Positions 22,401 through 63,736 of a stretch of 64,000 nt of DNA are shown here, in pieces (the stretch's first letter is position 1; every line of letters starts with the position of its first letter). The translations under genes and the position numbers were made by a program. Origin of the DNA: Trypanosoma brucei (lineage: Eukaryota). Location of the stretch: NCBI GenBank assembly GCA_000002445.1, contig CM000208.1, positions 3,904,001 to 3,968,000 of the forward strand, given 5' to 3'. Below the pieces are notes generated by a model, which saw only the letters and a list, made by a program, of their open reading frames with translations, did no database searches and had not been told where the DNA came from.

Positions 22401-24672
22401 ATGTCAAAAGGGAGGCTTCCGAAAAGTGGATTGCACGGCATTTTTCACGGAGGGGGAAGGAGCCACCGCGACGAGAGCACTACGAATTGTGAACTGATGG
22501 ATCCGTGTCCCTCGGTGAGGAGTCCGGAGCAGCTGCCCTGCTCTATAGAAACAATGCACTGATTTGTGCACCCAAGACCGGAGCAGGGGAACTCTCATGC
22601 AGTTACAGAGCGGAATGCGTAGCATTAGAGATAGAACTGCAACGGCTGCTGAAATGGCTTCCGGCATACAGAAGAACACCGAGCAGGTTGTCCATATTCT
22701 CTGACTCGCTGTCAATGTTAACAGCACTGCAGACAGGCCCCCTAGCCGTAACGGACCAAATTCTGAGACGACTGTGGAGGCTTCTGCTTCAAGTTCAGAG
22801 AAGGAAGGTGCATATCCGATTACGATTTTTGTTTGGCCATTGTGGCGTGAAACGGAATGAGGTTTGTGATGAAATGGCCAAAAAGGCCGCAGATTTACAA
22901 CAGTTGCGAGACACATGGATCCCCGACATCATTGCTTATGCGAAGCGAGTGCTTAGGTTGGAAGAAGTCCATGAGAACACTCATAGGTTTGGTATCACGG
23001 GCAACCACTTTCCAACAAAACATAAAGAAGAACTGCCGAGGGAAGAAGAAACGGCACTGGCACGCTTTCGGGTTGGGTCTTCAAGACACTATGGATGGAT
23101 GTTGCGAAAGATCAACCCGAGTGTGCCCTCACAGTGCCGATGGTGTAACCAGAAACATGCAGCGATAGGACCAACAATACAATACAAACAACCCCACCTG
23201 TTGCGACATGCACTCTTCAGAAAACCTCCGAACCGACCAAATGTACGGAATGTGATGCCACATACCAATGCCGCTCGAGTGCTGTAACGCACATGGTAAA
23301 CAAACATGGGTTTGTGCGAGCTGATGCCCTCCGGAGGATCAAATACGGCGATGCAACACCTGCAGTGGACATCCCCCCGGAACCCTCTCCAGTGGTGGCG
23401 ATCGTTCCTCTACCATCGAGCACACGAGTCCCGATGAGACTGCAGGTGCTTCATTGTACCATCTGTGCCTCCAAATTCGCAGTGCCAGGCCGACTATTAC
23501 ACCACCTTAGAACAATACATGGCATAGGCAGTGGTATTTGCCGCGTGAAAAGGGGGCGAGAGAACGAAAACTCATTGCAAGGAGATGGTAGAGCCCCAGC
23601 AGCGCCAGCCTCTCAGGATACACGGAAGCTGCCGTTTCAATGTGACCTGTGTGAGGCGAGCTTCGGTACACGCTCTTCCCTGTCACTACACAAGAAATTC
23701 AAACATAAGAGCATAGCGATGGAGGACGGTACCGTGGTGGTGGTGCAATTCCCTCGTAAGCGTGCCCGTGAGGGAAACGTTGACGTCCCGGGGAAGGGCG
23801 AGGTGCAGTGTGGTGTGTGCCAAAAAGTGCTCAGTTGCAGGGACTCCTTCATCAGACATTGTAAGGCTTTCCACAAAGGTGAGGGAGTCGAGCTTAAATG
23901 CAGCAAAAGCACAAAATTGTGTGCCACTGATTCCCCGCATACAAACGCATCCATGTTGGTGTGTCAGACATGCGGAAGGCAGTGTGCTAGCAAAACTGGC
24001 CTCACCCTACATCAAAAGAAGATGAACGGTATGAAGGTAGAGCGCGCTGTTACCAGCCAACGCGGCGACTGCGAAGAAACGTCGCTGCACTTAATGAGCT
24101 GTCCCGGTTTGAAGGAGTTACGTGTCAGGTTTGCGGTAGAAGGTGTGTGTGTGTGTGCAGGATGTATGCTTCTCTAAAAGGCTGGCGCAATTTCTCATTG
24201 CGGTTGAACGGAGCCGGCCGCAGGTGAAGTCCTCACCTAATGTAACAGTCATACAACTCACTCTCCCTTCTGCAACTTCCCCCCTTATTTCCGAGAGTGG
24301 AGCTAGCAGGAAAAGCACCGGACGCAGGAATAGTCCAGACACCCTCAGAGACAGAGAGGGGTATGCAGTCAACAAGCAACAGAAACAGAAAGAGGGAGAG
24401 AGAATAATAAACGAATAACAAAAATCAAAACAAAAGGATTGCTAATTGACATCTTTTGGAGAGTCCGGGGTGGGTGGCTTCTCGCCCGATCTGCTGTATT
24501 CCATTCAAATGCGGAGTTACAACAAAAATTATAGAGGGTGTGTTAGGCTTAATAAAAAAGGGAGACTCTGCCACAGTCGACAGATCGATAGCATCTCAGG
24601 GCTCTACAGTGATGGCTGATGGCCGCGCCAGTGGGGGGAAACTCCCACGAAGGCACGAAGAAAAATTAAATA
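19415..24672 (+). mobile_element. ingi retrotransposon, copy 2 (head-to-tail with copy 1)
   Basis: Same 5' hallmark 'CCCTGGCGATGCCAGCCACCTCAACG'. Near-identical to copy 1 along the entire length. 3' end is '...GGCACGAAGAAAAATTAAATAAATAT'. Confidence 0.9.
19423..24177 (+). pseudogene. ingi polyprotein, copy 2, with several frameshifts
   Basis: ORF pieces 19423–22005, 22160–22492, 22505–23287 and 23293–24177. A 1-nt insertion (catgttatggc vs catgtatggc) truncates the RT piece at 22005. The same in-frame TGA as copy 1 occurs at 22490–22492. 2A-like DVEENPGP at 19654–19677. Confidence 0.85.
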
Positions 24673-32559: not shown

Positions 32560-32650
32560 CCAAAACTGTTATTATTATAATATTATTATATACACGCTAA
32601 CAACACACTTCTATCATTATTATTATTATAAAGTCCCTAATATTTGTTTT
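32560..32650 (-). repeat. 70-bp repeat, minus orientation
   Basis: 'tatatacacgctaacaacacacttctatcattattattat' is the reverse complement of the 70-bp core. Confidence 0.65.
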
Positions 32651-52865: not shown

Positions 52866-53065
<200 letters not shown>

Positions 53066-55031
53066 TGATGCTAAAGACTAAATGCACGGTCAAGGATAGA
53101 AACACTTACACTCATTAAAAGGGGTTAATGAGAGTAAGTGAGTGAGATAGATCGGTGTATATTTTTATTAAAATAAATGAAAAGAAGATAATTTAGTATG
53201 GCGATCCAAAAAATAAACATGATGCTGGGCATAATGATACACAAGAAGAAGGATGGGACAACATGTGATACAAAATACAGTGTGTAGACCGATTGGGGTC
53301 GGTACGTTACAGCAGTGATAGCTGCAGGAGATGAAAAATAAGAAAAGAAAAAGCGGAATGAAAAGACGTGACACTTAGCAAGCTAATTCAAAGAATGCAG
53401 CAGGTAAATGGCACATAATTTCTCTAAACTTCCCTCTTTGACAAGTAATAACACAAGCAAACGATAAACGGCATAAAGCCAGCTAAAAATGCTTTTAACC
53501 TTACAAAAGGTGCAAAAACCAAAAGCACATTTAGAAAAAACAGCAAGTCGAAGAATGCACCAAACCTACATAAGAAAACAAGAAATAAAAAATATTTCAT
53601 CGTAATATAGTGTAGAAAGAATAAAAACTAATGGCGCTTTCGGAGAGACCAATTGTCGAAGTTATTCGATAAAAGAAAGCATTTCATTGTTTTATATGTT
53701 ACAAAGTGCAAACGCTTGCCAATATAAGGCAAATAGAAAACGTATAGTATTAGAATAGAGGTGACTTACAAGAGTGAAATTGATTTAATTTTATAAAATC
53801 GAAAATAAAAATTCCATCCATTTATACACAGTATTTCATTACCCTGAAAGTTTTATATATCGAGAAGTTTAAAATAAAGAAAGGTAGAGTGGAATGAAAC
53901 TGACAGTGGCGGAAAGATTGCACTTAGAGGTCACTATATAGAACTCAGAAGATACAGCTGCATGTGGTGTTGCATCTTGGGTGGCAAGGGCAGATGCACT
54001 TTAGCGTCCGCAAAGTCAGGCAGTAATGTCCAGCCCTGATGTAACACCAAGTTTACAAGTGGCAACATCCCGGTCAGCAAACCACAAGCTTCATCCATAC
54101 TGTTTTGCGAACAAAACGGATTAAAAAAGCAACCAGTAGCAGAGTTTGTGTATTGGAACACATTTCTGTGGGTGTTAATTTAAAAATAAGCCTGTGGTTG
54201 TCACTCTAGATCATCGACAAGCATGAGATATTAGGAGGAAATGGCGACAGAGAGGCGTAGAAAGACAATGGGAAAAAATTTTTGTGTTGCAACCTGAAAT
54301 GAGATAGGGAATAGAAAAGGAATTTTAAGAGGGGAAAACACAAGGAATATGAAAGAGAAGATATGGGACAGAACTCAATTCACTAGTCAAGCCTCAAATG
54401 TGTGGCCGAGACTGCCACACAACATGGCAATGTAATAACAGAATTGCAACCACCAACCAACAACAAGAAGCGAAAACTTATGCTGCATGCCCAGCTATTT
54501 CCGCCGCATATTTCACGGATCACTCAACAGCTGCTCCGCGCTAGCAATCTGTAGGCTGATGGAGACAACAACAAGGCGCAGAGACTTACTTTCCAACTAA
54601 AATACGCACTGCAGGATATATAACCAACAACCGTCGCAAGGCATCGTGACGTGACAGTGGAAGCAGGCTACACAACATACACAGAATCTAAGCAGCTTCC
54701 CCCCAAAGGTCAGAAGACCCTACCACTTATGTCTTCTGGCAGCGACAGCAAGAAAAAGTCGCTGCAGAGGGGTTATATAAAGCGGCTCAAAACACCGCAG
54801 CTTACAACACAAAATACTAAAGACCAGCACCACCATGTTCCTCAAAAGAGTATTTTTTTTGCAACACAGTGCAGGAAGCAGGAGAGAAAATGTGCTGGAA
54901 CAGGGAACTTGAAACACCAAGCAACACTGGATACGCAGCTTTTTTACTCCTTGCATTTTTCAAAATAAGTCCCAGTGTTGACAGACTAACCTAAGACACC
55001 CGTGTCCCTCAAAACAAACAGCTAAGCCGGC

Positions 55032-56572: not shown

Positions 56573-56839
56573 TTTGACAGTTATATATAATTTTAAGTAT
56601 GTATAAGCATATTTTCTCAATTTTATGGAATTTGTAAAATTGCTTAAATTTTATATATTTGAACGCCTTTGTAAAACTTTTGCAACTGGTTAAAAATTTT
56701 TAAAAGCTCAAAGATATAAAAACTTGAAATTTTTGTAAATTCTTCTTAATATATATCTATTGCTGCGGAGCTTTATGGTGATAGAATATGGAGAGTGTAT
56801 TCTGTTATAAGTATGTATATACTTACGTTTAATAAGAGC

Positions 56840-56925
56840 AACAACAATAATAATAGTAATAATGATAATAATAATAATAATAGAAGAGTGTTATGAGTGT
56901 GTGTATACGAATATTATAATAAGGG
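56840..56925 (+). repeat. 70-bp repeat
   Basis: 'aataatagtaataatgataataataataataatagaagagtgttatgagtgtgtgtatacgaatattataataagggtagtgg'. Confidence 0.75.
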
Positions 56926-57612
56926 TAGTGGTTGAAGGGCAATACACGGCCAAAATAGAGACACTTGCAAGTATAAAAAACGCAATGTTTGTAAGTGAGT
57001 AGGCGAACACTGTGGATTACATTGAACGAAGTGCAGAAATACAAAGACAGTTAGATATGGAATATGTGTGGGCTCAAACGAAACCACGAAGGTCAGCATC
57101 ATTATACATGTGGTGGTTGTGCCGAGGCCAATTTAGGAACAGGAAGACTCTAGTGTACAGACCAAATTTATATCGGCACGGGATACGCAACAACATTGGA
57201 TTTGGTGAGGAAGTTACACCACTGCGAAATTTAGGAAAGCAGATAGTCGGCATATTTACAGCACAAAGGCTTAAAATTTATAGTAAACGTGAGGACAACT
57301 AGTGTATCTGGCTATTTAATTTTTATCATAATGTACATAGGGGTTCATGTAGCGTCTAGCAGCAGTTGTCCTTGAATATAAATTAAAAAAACAAAAAAGG
57401 CAGGTCCTTGATGAGATATAATCTTAAAACACTGAGAACACACTGTTTGTCAGCTACATCATAAAAATATCAGAGCGCTGCATATATATATATATTTGTA
57501 AACATTACTTCATAACTAATCATATTTTCTGCACAACTGCCTTCTTCTATCAAAATATTCTATCATTTTATAAGAATTTTAAAGTCTTTCCTTAGTATAG
57601 AAGTATTGTCTT

Positions 57613-58715
57613 ATGAAATATATAGAAAGAATTCATGCAATAATAGGCTGTTTATCCTTTATTGTTATGGGGATTAATTTATTTACGTCACTATATAACT
57701 TGTTTTGTGAGGATTATCCTATTTCACTTGAAATAATAGAAAATGACTATATGAGATTTGTTACGCAGGATGTAAGGAGGATTTGGAAAAGCAAAGATTA
57801 TTTGGTTGTAGCTCTAATACCTTTAATAGATAATAACGAGATTTTAGAAGAAGGAATATTCAAAGAGAAACGTGTTGGAGTTATCCTGAAGTGGCAAGAA
57901 AGTCAAATAATTTTACAGGGAAGTTGCTTGTAGTATATGCTCTTTCACCTTACACAAATAACAATTGCAAACTCAGAGAAATTGCTGCAACAGAGGGTTA
58001 TGTAAATCAGGATATTATTATTTTACCCGTTTGCGATGTCGACCCTACAACAAATAAGAAAGTGGGAGAAGCTGGTAATTGGGGTTGGGAAGCAGAACTC
58101 ACGATGAGTAGAAAAACGTATCTGTGGTTCAAATTTTCAGTAGAGATATTCAAGAAAACTAATCCCTATATAATAAAAGCAGATAACGATATATTTATGA
58201 GAGTGCCATTGTATCTAAAATATCTAGAGCTGCTTCCAAGAGAAAAATTAAATATGGGGAGAGCAGTTGGATATTATAAAGATTTTAGTGATGAAATTAC
58301 ATGGCACACCATTGGTTATGCATCGACACTATCTAGGGATGTAGTTAAGAAAATTGTTGATTATGACCCTCTGAAAAAATTAGTAAAAGCACCAATTAAG
58401 TTCAGAAATTTTGAATCATATATGGATTTTAGAGCACTTAATGAAGATACTATGGTTGGAGAGGTAATAAGGAGTAAATTGAAATTTGAGGGTTTATTAA
58501 CTGTGGATATGCAGGACTGTCATTTTGTAATGCATGCGCAAACTCGGGGACCAACCGAGGCCAAAAGTAGTTGCAACATCATAGCATTTCATCATATCTT
58601 GCCTTACCAGTATCAACAGCTGCCCCTAACATCGAACACATCAATTTGTGCAGGCAAACGAAACCCAGTGTTACGCACCATAAACGATCAATGGGCAGAG
58701 TTCACTTGTCAATGA
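57613..58715 (+). pseudogene. Beta-1,3-glycosyltransferase-like (GT31/GT67, 'UDP-Gal/UDP-GlcNAc-dependent glycosyltransferase' family); type II membrane protein, frameshifted at ~57890
   Basis: ORF 57613–57933 has N-terminal signal anchor IIGCLSFIVMGINLFTSLYNLF. ORF 57891–58715 carries 'LLVVYALSPYTNNNCKLREIAATEGY' (B3GT motif I-like) and 'YIIKADNDIFMRVP' (DxD motif, like KADDDVFV of beta-3-GalT/GnT). The two ORFs overlap in different frames. Sequence is strongly AT-rich. Confidence 0.6.
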
Positions 58716-59199
58716 CAGTTATTCCAAGCCAAAGCAAGCAACGAAAAACCGAGCAAATAAGGTGGGAACCGGCAAGTCTCCGCATGCAATGTAACTATGA
58801 CCTGGTAGGCACAACAAAAAAAGGAATAAAAAAGCATGCACCGCAATTCGGTATTTTCAAGAGACGGCAGCAAACTCAAGCCACAAAAGCTCCAACTCAA
58901 AGCTATTTCCCCGCACCGACCATAGCATGTAGGTGACAAATAAGAAACGACTATGTAAAAGGCAGTAAACAGAAACGACACAAGCTGCGTGATCCAGGAC
59001 CAAACAAGTGTTGTTTTTCTTTGCCGACGCGGTGGCTCGCTACTGGCTAGCAACTAAAAAACAAAGATAATCTAAACAAATTTTTTTCGTTTTCACACAG
59101 AGGTATAAACACCATGTCCACACACACGATAATCAAAACCAGCAGCCTGCAGCAATTCTCAAAACACTAGGTCGCCATTCAAGAGGAAATTTAGTTAAA

Positions 59200-60741
59200 A
59201 TGGTCAAACAACTCATGACAAGCGCCATCTTAGTGCTACTTGTAGCAACAAAAGGTGATGCAATAGTGGCAGCAGGTGACAATGCAGCAGCAGCAGGCGC
59301 CCTTTGTGAAGTTCTGGCATTAGGCGCCGGGCGGAGTTTGCTAACTCAACCTAAAGAAAACGCTGACACAGCGCACCACAGCCTCCTAGACTTGAACATG
59401 TCGCTTGCAGGTGAAAGTTGGAGGTCTGTCTTTGAGGAATCAGGCAAAAAGGGAACATATCCGGCAGCGAAGCCACAGCGCTACGACACCAACAAAGATT
59501 GGGATACAAAATGGAAGGAATGGTCGCAAACGGCTCAAAGGCTAAAGGACGCTGATGGCATACAGCAGAAACTCAAAGAACACAAACTCCATTCCAGAAC
59601 AGTCCAGCATTTGGCAGTAGCCAAGCAAGCGGTCCTACAGCTAGCCGATGAACAATCAAAACTTGCAGCGGAACTTCAAAGGATAAAGGACACAAAGAAA
59701 ATCCTAGCTAACGATCAGCTAAGAGAAAAGATAAATACAGCTCTCTATGGCGAAAACGTCGCCACAGAAAACACACTATCACCTAACAAGGTATTTGACG
59801 CAACAGCCGGCAGCGACAGGAAAGCCAACTGCGACGGCACAGCCAAAGACAACAAAGCGAAAACAGTGATGGCAGCGCTGGTGTGCGTATGCAGCGAGGA
59901 TTCATCCAGCGGCCTAGACCAAGCGTGAAACAAGCATCTAACCCTAAATCAGCAATGGACATCGAGCAGTCAACCAACAAACGATGTGATGCAAGAGCTA
60001 AGAAACCTCTGCCCGACAGCAAAGCCGACAACCATAACGGCAGCCAGACTGGCGAGCATAATAAGCAATGTTAAGACTCACTTCATCGCAAGCTCATCAG
60101 CAACGGTATTAGGAAAACTGGATACGGGAGCAGCCTGCAGTGGTTCTGCCAACAGCGGGCTCTGCTTAAAATACACGGACGTCCACCAAGTGGCAGCAAA
60201 CACGATAGACGACATCAGTTGGATAGCTGCTCTAAACCAGATAGTAAACGACATAAAAGACCACGAAGAGAGCGTAGCGGCAGTAGACAGCATCGGCCGC
60301 CAGCTAAGCGCAAACACTGAAAAAGCAGGAGCCTTTATCGCCAGCATAGAGCAGTACACGCAGGCACAAGCAGCAGTATCACCAACAACGAATCCCAACC
60401 CCGCACAGGCTCAGAAAAACGATCAAAATGCAAAAAATGCTTGCGCCCAACACAGGTCTAACACAAGCTGCACAGATGAAGGCTGCAAATGGGATGGGAC
60501 TGAAGAAACCAAAGGAAAGTGCAAACCTAAAGATGGGGAAGTACAGAAAACTCAAGGAACAGGAGAGGGAGCTGCAGAAACAAATGCCGAAGGCAAAAAG
60601 TGCTCCGAAAAGACAAAGCAAGAGGAATGAAAAGATGACTGCAAATGGGAAAATAATGCTTGCATAAATTCCAGTTTTCTTGTAAACAAACACTTCGCCC
60701 TCAGCATGGTTTCTGCTGCATTTGTGGCCTTGCTTTTTTAA
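59200..60741 (+). pseudogene. VSG V5 (frameshifted)
   Basis: ORF 59200–59928 has signal peptide MVKQLMTSAILVLLVATKGDA plus N-domain. ORF 59986–60630 ends in C-domain 'CTDEGCKWDGTEETKGKCKPKDGE'. Tail is '[33 protein letters not shown]'. Confidence 0.8.
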
Positions 60742-60792
60742 TTAACCCCCCCTTTTATAAAAATTTTCCCCCTGCTAAAATTTTGCTACACT

Positions 60793-60808
60793 GATATATT
60801 TTAACACC
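60793..60808 (+). promoter_or_regulatory. VSG 3'UTR 16-mer
   Basis: 'tgatatattttaacac' exact, ~50 nt after the V5 stop. Confidence 0.8.
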
Positions 60809-60954: not shown

Positions 60955-61080
60955 GGGTTAGGGTTAGGGTTAGGGTTAGGGTTAGGGTTAGGGTTAGGGT
61001 TAGGGTTAGGGTTAGGGTATTGAGGGTTAAGGTGGTGAGGGTTAGGGTATTGAGGGTTAAGGTGGTGAGGGTTAGGGTTT
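60955..61080 (+). repeat. Interstitial telomere tract: (TTAGGG)10 followed by two ~30-bp degenerate subtelomeric-type repeats (GGGTATTGAGGGTTAAGGTGGTGAGGGTTA)
   Basis: Perfect ttaggg x10 from ~60957 to 61017, preceded by degenerate 'tagttaggttagttgg'. Two tandem copies of the 30-mer follow, at 61015–61074. Confidence 0.9.
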
Positions 61081-62299: not shown

Positions 62300-62375
62300 A
62301 GATGTCAATGGAGACTATAATAAAGATGATAACAATAGGAGTGTATTGTGAGTGTGTCTTTACTAATATTATAGT
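62300..62375 (+). repeat. 70-bp repeat upstream of VSG V7
   Basis: 'ataaagatgataacaataggagtgtattgtgagtgtgtctttactaatattatagtaagg'. Confidence 0.65.
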
Positions 62376-63736
62376 AAGGTTAGTGGTAGAAACTAAATAG
62401 ATGAAAAATATAGAAGGGCTTCAGACAATGACAATAGTGCAATGTGAGTGGGGCAGCGGATGAGTGAGAGAGCGCGGGGAATATTTTTATGAAAGGGAAT
62501 GCAGAAAGACAAAGGGAAAAAGATGGAATATGCGAAGTTTCAAACACATTAAAGGCAATGTACATCATTGCACACAAAAGAAGGGTACGGAGATCATTAA
62601 TGAAAAAAGTAAACCTTACAAAAGTAGTTGAGTTACTTTTTTATCAGAAACTGACAAGGAATGAAGCAACAAAAACAGCTGACTAAAGATCCAGTAAAGA
62701 CCGGCGATAAAAGAATAAGAACACGCTTATATGAAATGATGAAAGATCTATATTAAGTAAAGACAATCAATACTGATACTCCACAAATTTAAGACATGTA
62801 TAAAGGCCAGACATTAAGACATCTAAAGAAACGAATAATTAACATAAGAGTTGTGACTGATGCAAAAATAATGTATCGTATTAACAAGGTGGAAGCAGTA
62901 AGGAAAGCACTTTCTTTCTCCAAAATTCCAGGTCTTAAGGAAAAGTGAACCATATCCATACTACAATATCTAAAAAAGAAGCACAACACCATCTTTGTGA
63001 GAGATAAGCAACAGCGGTATCTGGTCATTCGGAGTCATGAGGATACATTGAAACTGCTAGATGGTAGAAGACATTTAAAAACACAAATATAAAATGTCTT
63101 GGGTATACCAAAATCTGCGGTATTTTAAAGAATGACAGAAAGAAAATTCTAGTCGTGTATGAAAGAACTATATAAATGAACACAGTATGATATAGGTTGA
63201 AATTAGCAAGAGACATTAGCAAAAAACAAAATTTACGTTAAACGTTTTTAGAATTTTTAACTCTTTCTACGGTAGAACTAACTTTTTCACAAGTTAAACA
63301 CGTAAAAAACGCTACCATTTAGTGTGGTAATTTACATATTTATGTATATCTTTATGCCAATTTTTTTAATTTGCGTTTTTTTCTTTTAACACATGCTTTT
63401 CGCTTGTTTGCCGTGGTTTTCTCATTTTATTTTGTGCTCTCAATGGCCTGACAGCGATATAGAGGCCGATCCTTTGTTGAAATTTTTTTTTACTGGAGTG
63501 GCGGAATTTAACGTCGCCACAGCATAGAAAGGAAGAACACCACGACCACATAACCAAATGTTGCTTTAAAACCTAAAGATCCAGACATATGACAACGATG
63601 TGAAGTCTACGAACTATTTCCTGTAACTGACATAGGGAAGCAACCAAATAAATCGCTGCAACGCTAAGACTAGTCGCATAACTGTTTCCTCACTTACATG
63701 ATTAAAGAAGACACAAGGATTCAACCAATTTATTCT

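Follow-up and report, generated by a model that had tools for sequence, protein, structure and literature searches.

A probable GT67 glycosyltransferase pseudogene in a silent VSG cassette of Trypanosoma brucei brucei TREU927

The described enzymes closest to the gene treated here are the trypanosome glycosyltransferases (GTs) which CAZy files under family GT67, and not under GT31 (PMC8477195); they depend on either UDP-Gal or UDP-GlcNAc as donor and are β3-glycosyltransferase-like type II membrane proteins of the Golgi, with a GT-A fold. Three motifs have been described in the T. brucei GT67 proteins, namely WG, the counterpart of (I/L)RxxWG in the β3-glycosyltransferases, Y(I,V,F)xKxDDD and ED(A/V/I/L/M)(M/L)x(G/A) (PMC9472816). 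Glycosyltransferases account for 1.1-1.5% of the subtelomeric genes of T. brucei (PMC2854126), multiple pseudogene copies, variable between strains, have been reported (PMC4288722), and the published GT67 gene counts leave out predicted pseudogenes (PMC8477195). Among lineages 1-7 of the UDP-dependent glycosyltransferases (UGTs) distinguished by Pereira and Jackson in 2018, two (1 and 7) have undergone subtelomeric expansion in T. brucei and T. congolense as species-specific clades, with "unusual branch lengths... particularly in T. brucei", and the LogDet distances used in that work show that composition bias was recognised (PMC5853035). The present analysis concerns a split, AT-rich glycosyltransferase gene at positions 57613-58715 of a stretch of 64,000 nucleotides of T. 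brucei brucei TREU927 (the window; contig CM000208.1, positions 3,904,001 to 3,968,000, assembly GCA_000002445.1), lying between a 70-bp-type repeat and a variant surface glycoprotein (VSG) gene.

This locus is, with high probability, a pseudogene of the kinetoplastid GT67 family carried in a silent subtelomeric VSG cassette. Comparison of the sequences establishes its descent from GT67 and a single break of the reading frame, together with damage to two signature motifs that is peculiar to this copy; the inactivation itself, its date and the way in which the segment may be copied are matters of probability and are weighed below.

Descent of the two reading frames from GT67

Two overlapping open reading frames (ORFs) lie on the + strand, one of 106 aa (57613..57933) and one of 274 aa (57891..58715), where the earlier note had placed them, and the peptide strings quoted there were found too. 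When the frames are joined where homology switches from one to the other, they yield a type II membrane protein of 367 aa, in which residues 9-27 are hydrophobic (Kyte-Doolittle mean 2.04) and make a plausible signal anchor. Against the annotated GT67 proteins of TREU927 the joined protein scores E=1e-131 with 57-72% identity, and its identity to members from T. congolense, T. theileri and T. cruzi is 35-41%; the family profile retrieves 156 members, and the 120 matches listed are all from Trypanosoma. By tblastn, residues 1-76 of the TREU927 paralogue P0004 map to 57613-57840 at 71% identity, residues 61-345 of P0001 to 57858-58709 (E=1e-118) and residues 2-203 of P0006 to 58104-58709, so that homology is collinear over 57613-57840 and 57858-58709, with one frame change and one GT locus in the window. 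The 14 columns that are invariant in the family alignment are all preserved, the K-x-D-x-D core among them. The parts of the gene and of its 5' flank are the following.

57300..57612, + strand: 5' flank of the GT relic, very AT-rich (25-31% G+C in the composition profile)
57613..57840, + strand: GT67 part A in frame 1, codons 1-76, with a short cytoplasmic tail, signal anchor, stem and β1 block
57637-57693, + strand: signal-anchor helix AIIGCLSFIVMGINLFTSL, within part A
57796-57840, + strand: strand β1 block DYLVVALIPLIDNNE, at the end of part A in the family alignment
57841..57846, + strand: frameshift site, where an A-TTTT run following codon 76 has lost one base (net)
57843..58715, + strand: GT67 part B in window frame 3, the remainder of the catalytic domain
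57912-57944, + strand: strand β2 block FTGKLLVVYAL, in part B
58077-58091, + strand: WG motif NWGWE, in part B
58167-58190, + strand: DxD block YIIKADND, with DDD changed to DND
58440-58460, + strand: third motif NEDTMVG, with I changed to T
58500..58530, + strand: discontinuity, a step in G+C and divergence inside the GT coding sequence
58590-58613, + strand: HHILPYQY, in part B
58692-58715, + strand: C-terminal WAEFTCQ and stop, in part B

The assignment to GT67 is made because of homology to annotated trypanosome GTs and not through a Pfam match. A Pfam scan at E<=0.01 gave no match for the GT ORF; the PF01762 (Galactosyl_T) profile, proposed in the earlier note as a check on the repaired protein, scores 15.1-15.5 bits on the ORF and the repaired protein (15.5 bits on the latter; E=0.015-0.021), below the gathering cutoff of 23 bits. 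What weak match there is covers the DxD segment, at profile positions 64-105, and the 14 aligned relatives all match PF01762 at E<=0.1, the best at 1.8e-10. No PDB sequence was found by phmmer or hmmsearch, and the AlphaFold model of the 274-aa ORF is of low confidence (pLDDT, the predicted local distance difference score, 60.5), with no significant Foldseek match in the PDB. The closest intact relative, P0005 of T. congolense, is 41% identical and gives a model of pLDDT 88 and pTM (predicted template-modelling score) 0.82, whose top Foldseek matches in the PDB are human GT31 enzymes, namely B3GalT5, B3GNT2 and B3GalT6 at E 2e-13 to 4e-11; chondroitin synthases and Manic Fringe come next. With P0005 as proxy, the model thus suggests that the term "β3-glycosyltransferase-like" is right for fold and descent, and the description of the locus as a frameshift-split gene for a membrane protein of this type holds.

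No credence is left for the view that the ORFs are chance open frames in an AT-rich spacer that holds no gene. The subthreshold Pfam match of the ORF alone might be cited for it; it is contradicted both by the E-value against annotated GT67 proteins given above and by the length of the frame, the longest run without a stop being 292 codons, whereas 5000 first-order Markov simulations gave 61 on average and 152 at most. A separate analytic estimate puts the probability of 274 codons without a stop at ~8e-11, and the contention that so long an ORF is unlikely by chance in DNA of this composition is thereby borne out.

The frame break and the signature motifs

Homology in frame 1 stops with ...LIDNNE at 57840; in the other frame the reading is FRRRNIQRETCW from 57843 onward. 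The lesion lies in the context GAG-A-TTTT-AGA, at a point where the family alignment has ...SIDxDxR-x-RRRxLQRxTCW..., and it hits the codon of the conserved Arg of the block D-x-R-x-RRR-x-LQR-x-TCW; addition of one T gives ...IDNNEIFRRRNIQRETCW... and a collinear frame of 367 codons. Beyond 57840 the 106-aa ORF is an out-of-frame extension running to the stop at 57933, and the 274-aa ORF alone is without anchor and without strand β1. In the P0005 model the break falls between strand 80-85 and helix 90-101. The ancestral gene, by analogy with characterised members, would have encoded a Golgi UDP-Gal/UDP-GlcNAc transferase of ~367-377 aa acting on N-glycans or GPI side chains; in the present copy the loss of one base cuts off signal anchor, stem and first β strand from what remains of the catalytic domain. 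The type II topology joined to a catalytic domain is not found here, the frameshift having put the anchor in another frame; because of this break neither ORF yields a membrane-targeted, complete GT-A domain, and the product is probably non-functional.

A different origin of the frameshift had been suggested in the earlier note, namely a local tandem duplication of a "motif I" (57787-57838 and 57918-57974). The two peptides concerned, DYLVVALIPLIDNNE (57796-57840) and FTGKLLVVYALSPYTNNN (57912 onward), are superficially alike, each with a hydrophobic run followed by x-P-x-x-x-N-N; at the level of DNA, though, the two stretches do not resemble each other (their local alignment scores 15, shuffled sequences averaging 14.97), and the repeat search found no direct repeat pairing them. 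Both blocks occur in the same order and with the same spacing in every aligned relative, from T. cruzi to T. congolense; the model of P0005 shows them as distinct strands (residues 80-85 for one, 120-126 for the other) in its Rossmann-like GT-A core, and the window protein has no surplus residues with respect to the family. A duplication is therefore hardly conceivable, the look-alike strings being the separate, family-wide blocks β1 and β2. Even the label is misplaced, the first motif of the family being WG, found as NWGWE at 58077-58091.

The three signature motifs have fared differently. The first is intact (GNWGWE). The second departs from its consensus, reading YIIKADND: Asn has replaced the middle Asp, while the outer two Asp residues persist; DDD is present in all aligned paralogues and in other species, and DND only in the window copy. 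The third departs from consensus as well, EDTMVG having Thr at the third position where the paralogues have EDIMVG. Judged against the published GT67 motifs (PMC9472816), D99N and the EDT change are, on the alignment, specific to this copy. Among columns conserved at >=90% in other species (n=62), the window copy deviates at 16 and the paralogues similarly, at 21-33%; most deviations are common to the whole clade to which these proteins belong (see below), the copy-specific ones being H21Y, P89K, A83S, D99N and E238P.

Base composition, the T. brucei-only clade and the C-terminal step

The G+C content is 32.1% over 57613-58500 and 45% over 58501-58715. The window as a whole has 44.6%, and the VSG, ESAG4-like and ingi ORFs nearby have 49-54%, so that the AT-richness perceived by eye in the earlier note is real. 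For two relatives G+C was taken directly from the DNA: the core paralogue P0111, 35% identical to the window protein, has 48.0% (G+C at the third codon position, GC3, 0.48), and the T. congolense P0005 gene 52.0% (GC3 0.64); five TREU927 paralogues (P0001-P0004 and P0006) were judged from protein composition. In these the fraction of Phe, Tyr, Met, Ile, Asn and Lys (FYMINK) is 0.32-0.36 as against 0.21-0.30 in other species, and the bounds that the proteins set on G+C at codon positions 1-2 are 0.35-0.44, to be compared with 0.35-0.42 for the window protein (actual value 0.37) and with actual values of 0.48 in the core paralogue and 0.50-0.52 in the VSG, ESAG4 and ingi ORFs. Because the bounds of the paralogues match the window copy and lie below the core paralogue, AT-richness is, as judged from the paralogue proteins, a trait of the clade and not of the locus; many of the clade-wide substitutions at conserved columns are moreover AT-directed (G to K, Y to N, L to I). 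According to the earlier note, agreement in G+C with TbGT paralogues would have meant that the locus was nothing unusual; such agreement exists in part, the five closest paralogues being AT-rich at positions 1-2, while the core TbGT paralogue stands at 48%.

As a side observation, P0111 lies in T. b. equiperdum CM010679.1 within a tandem array of at least three copies (L001 648-1664, 3001-4173, ~5730-6241) of 48% G+C. The chromosome, of 1.57 Mb, ends ~140 kb away from the array, whose two complete copies do not differ over 338 aa.

In a neighbour-joining (NJ) tree the window copy groups with P0002 and P0004, and then with P0001, P0003 and P0006, to form a clade confined to T. brucei; its sister clade holds T. 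congolense sequences alone, intact proteins of 377-380 aa. The five closest TREU927 paralogues are all incomplete (203-345 aa), each truncated differently, and of the clade members sampled none but the window copy spans signal anchor to terminal Cys; since all five are truncated, the whole clade may be decaying. P0001 (XP_803396.1) offers an example: its annotated N-terminus, MYFCLYTACLVRVTLFHLKLLK..., matches window 57692-57751 only outside the real GT frame, so that P0001 is an N-terminally frameshifted copy without signal anchor. Among the protein-database matches listed, T. b. gambiense, T. evansi and T. equiperdum contributed no clade member, although a T. b. equiperdum core GT did appear.

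Several observations weigh against a pseudogene. But for the one frameshift the frame is fully open over 367 codons (32% G+C), which could reflect recent inactivation, an error or a strain polymorphism; DND, as read from the sequence, still satisfies a minimal DxD; and the overall G+C and GC3 of the paralogues, which enter the argument on the clade, are estimates from protein composition only. The corresponding alternative is that the gene is functional and encodes an active AT-rich GT67 enzyme, the frameshift being a sequencing or assembly error, a strain polymorphism or a site bypassed by ribosomal frameshifting. That the frame changes only once, that the shift lies in a homopolymer-type run where one extra T restores collinearity, and that all family-invariant residues are kept speak for a functional gene; yet the window matches the TREU927 reference sequence. 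The genome of this strain was assembled from clones and Sanger-finished, so that a homopolymer error at the frameshift is unlikely. Copy-specific changes are present in two of the three signature motifs (DND and EDTMVG; PMC9472816). All the other clade members sampled are truncated, the VSG beside the gene is a pseudogene too, the gene occupies a silent position in the array, and an exact-protein look-up of the 274-aa ORF returned no identical protein on record. On balance a functional gene is very unlikely. If the pseudogene reading is kept, the presence of one lesion in 367 codons of very AT-rich DNA implies that inactivation is probably recent, or that the copies have been homogenised by conversion.

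The 3' end of the gene requires separate treatment. Before ~58510, segment-wise BLASTP and 60-nt windows give 63-82% identity to the paralogues and 27-35% G+C; after it identity falls to 32-41% and G+C rises to 43-50%, with collinearity kept, and GC3 goes from 0.26 in the gene body to 0.44 in the tail. P0001 and P0006 align to the final residue (WAEFTCQ* against WHEFTC* and WHEASC*), the terminal Cys is conserved throughout the family alignment, and a search of the other two frames for compensating frameshifts in the divergent tail showed no likeness to family tails. The switch to normal G+C described in the earlier note thus exists, over the last ~65 codons and with a sharp step at ~58510; its suggestion that the true C-terminus had been replaced by something unrelated does not stand, because the tail is collinear with the family C-terminus down to the terminal Cys.

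The step could mark a recombination or gene-conversion breakpoint near 58510 that joined the AT-rich GT67 body to the 3' end and flank of a GT67 copy of normal G+C. The coincidence of the G+C step with the fall in identity would suit such a mosaic, as would the continuation of normal G+C into the downstream flank and the change of nearest relatives, P0002, the best relative of the body (81.5% just before the breakpoint), being absent from the tail matches, which P0001 and P0006 lead; no part of the family, however, is less conserved than the C-terminal ~60 residues, the tails of P0001 and P0006 show a similar but weaker fall in AT-type residues, and the top tail matches still belong to the same clade. 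Recombination breakpoints were detected by Pereira and Jackson in the T. congolense UGT set, but in T. brucei they report recombination to be rare among genes of the expanded lineage (PMC5853035). The data are accounted for just as well by a tail that evolves fast and has an ancestral step in composition, and the tail may simply be such a part of the family, carrying an old step; a mosaic is accordingly entertained as a minor possibility, perhaps one chance among several.

The VSG cassette and comparison with known systems

The elements that flank the GT relic are listed below.

56811..56937, + strand: single 70-bp-type repeat unit with a TRR-rich run and GAGTGTTATGAGTGTGTGTATACGAATATTATAATAAG, the 5' edge of the VSG cassette
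59200..60741, + strand: B-type VSG pseudogene (Pfam VSG_B and Trypan_glycop_C)
60792-60807, + strand: 16-mer of the VSG 3' untranslated region (3'UTR), TGATATATTTTAACAC, after the VSG pseudogene
60955..61079, + strand: interstitial telomere-type tract of ~10 perfect TTAGGG units followed by degenerate units (TRF)

The cassette thus runs from the 70-bp unit through a spacer of ~0.7 kb, the GT relic and 0.5 kb of normal-G+C DNA to the VSG, the 16-mer and the TTAGGG tract; another VSG remnant and another 70-bp unit follow downstream. The 70-bp-type unit contains (AAT)12 at 56846-56882 and matches by blastn the units at 40671-40923, 52868-53143, 47807-47899, 32572-32629 and 62317-62391. As it ends at 56937 and the ATG of the VSG is at 59200, the GT gene does lie between repeat and VSG, as had been noticed, in an interval of 2.26 kb. 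Within the 5' flank of the relic a pyrimidine run, CTGCCTTCTTCT (~57537-57548), is followed by AG dinucleotides, an arrangement which would suit a trans-splice acceptor. Pfam scans of the flanking ORFs (57012-57302, 58571-58936, 58709-59053 minus strand) gave no match, and tblastn at E<=1e-3 detected no other GT relic in the window, the AT-rich block 62500-63400 included.

The VSG at 59200-60741 is in one frame, with no frameshift and with in-frame stops at 59926-59928 and 60628-60630; a hydrophobic tail of the GPI-signal type is still in frame, the natural stop being at 60739-60741. The TTAGGG pattern search gave 8 overlapping matches as against 0 expected. The tract begins ~215 bp past the natural stop of the VSG and ~150 bp past the 16-mer, with its G-strand directed away from the VSG; it is oriented as if the chromosome ended to the right, yet the sequence runs 3 kb further. 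It looks like the fossil of an internalised telomeric VSG cassette, an assembly join being less likely.

The surroundings are those of a subtelomeric array: several VSGs, as genes or as fragments, occur in the window together with an adenylate cyclase resembling ESAG4, ingi ORFs and 70-bp repeats. The cyclase, of receptor type and 1254 aa (window 2132-5896), is identical to TREU927 XP_828088.1, by which the window is recognised as reference sequence of that strain. Ingi-type non-long-terminal-repeat retrotransposon copies lie on the minus strand at 13169-18189, 19423-24177 and 41868-46669, two of them tandem and one inverted; endonuclease, reverse-transcriptase and C2H2 zinc-finger domains were seen in the first, and the other two are assigned from their ORF layout. 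The 70-bp-repeat/TRR-type arrays at 52868-53143 and 40671-40923 are longer than the unit beside the GT relic (52868-52993 being a long triplet run), and further copies of the VSG 3'UTR 16-mer occur at 47619, 49922 and 52621.

Because the gene sits between a 70-bp repeat and a VSG, gene conversion starting in the repeat would passively copy the GT relic with the cassette. The earlier idea of a glycosyltransferase hitch-hiking in the VSG array fits the published subtelomeric GT copies, but for the same reason is not new: subtelomeric GT67 copies and pseudogenes have been published, the locus is in the reference genome, and it is of an already known kind. By itself it matters little, and the look-alike "motif I" strings should not be taken as a duplication; as the most complete of the sampled clade, it is nevertheless the best template for the function of the clade's ancestral enzyme.

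A wider proposal may be recorded, which we hold to be unlikely: that the T. brucei-only clade shifted to ~32% G+C (GC3 ~26%) after the split from T. congolense, under selection rather than through mere decay and with long frames kept, because of a mutational or expression regime peculiar to the DNA between 70-bp repeats and telomeric VSGs; that GT copies were reshuffled with VSG cassettes, a movement suggested because this cassette ends in a fossil TTAGGG tract; and that the window copy is either recently silenced or a strain-polymorphic functional gene. Were it true, turnover of the glycosyltransferase repertoire would be tied to the machinery of antigenic variation. In the literature searched, no explicit statement was found of a clade-wide shift to about one-third G+C with long ORFs kept.

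Of the systems with which the pseudogene can be compared, the nearest are the five TREU927 paralogues, which have in common with it the clade substitutions (KGDDD to KADDD and, in columns that the family conserves, G to K, Y to N, Y to I and L to I), the AT-type amino-acid bias, the low bounds on G+C at positions 1-2 and incompleteness; they keep DDD and EDIMVG, whereas the window copy has DND and EDTMVG. The GT67 enzymes TbGT3, TbGT8, TbGT10, TbGT11/GnTI and TbGT15/GnTII resemble it in its ancestral type II topology and motif set, but those that have been characterised are intact genes, expressed and normal in G+C, unlike a copy that is frameshifted, of 32% G+C and altered in two motifs. The mammalian GT31 enzymes (B3GalT5, B3GNT2, B3GalT6, Fringe) have structures matched by the P0005 model (Foldseek E 2e-13 to 9e-6), but sequence identity is only ~16% and the PF01762 score of the window protein is itself under the cutoff.

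By VSG co-transposed region is meant the segment which separates the 70-bp repeats from a VSG and is copied together with it. The position of the GT relic matches this region, and the segment may have been copied in such a way; the adjoining VSG, however, is itself a pseudogene, and among the VSG cassettes of the window a GT relic is found by tblastn only in that of the VSG at 59200. With the UGT expansion described by Pereira and Jackson the agreement lies in the subtelomeric location and in the species-specific clades, which match the NJ topology of the window copy (PMC5853035).

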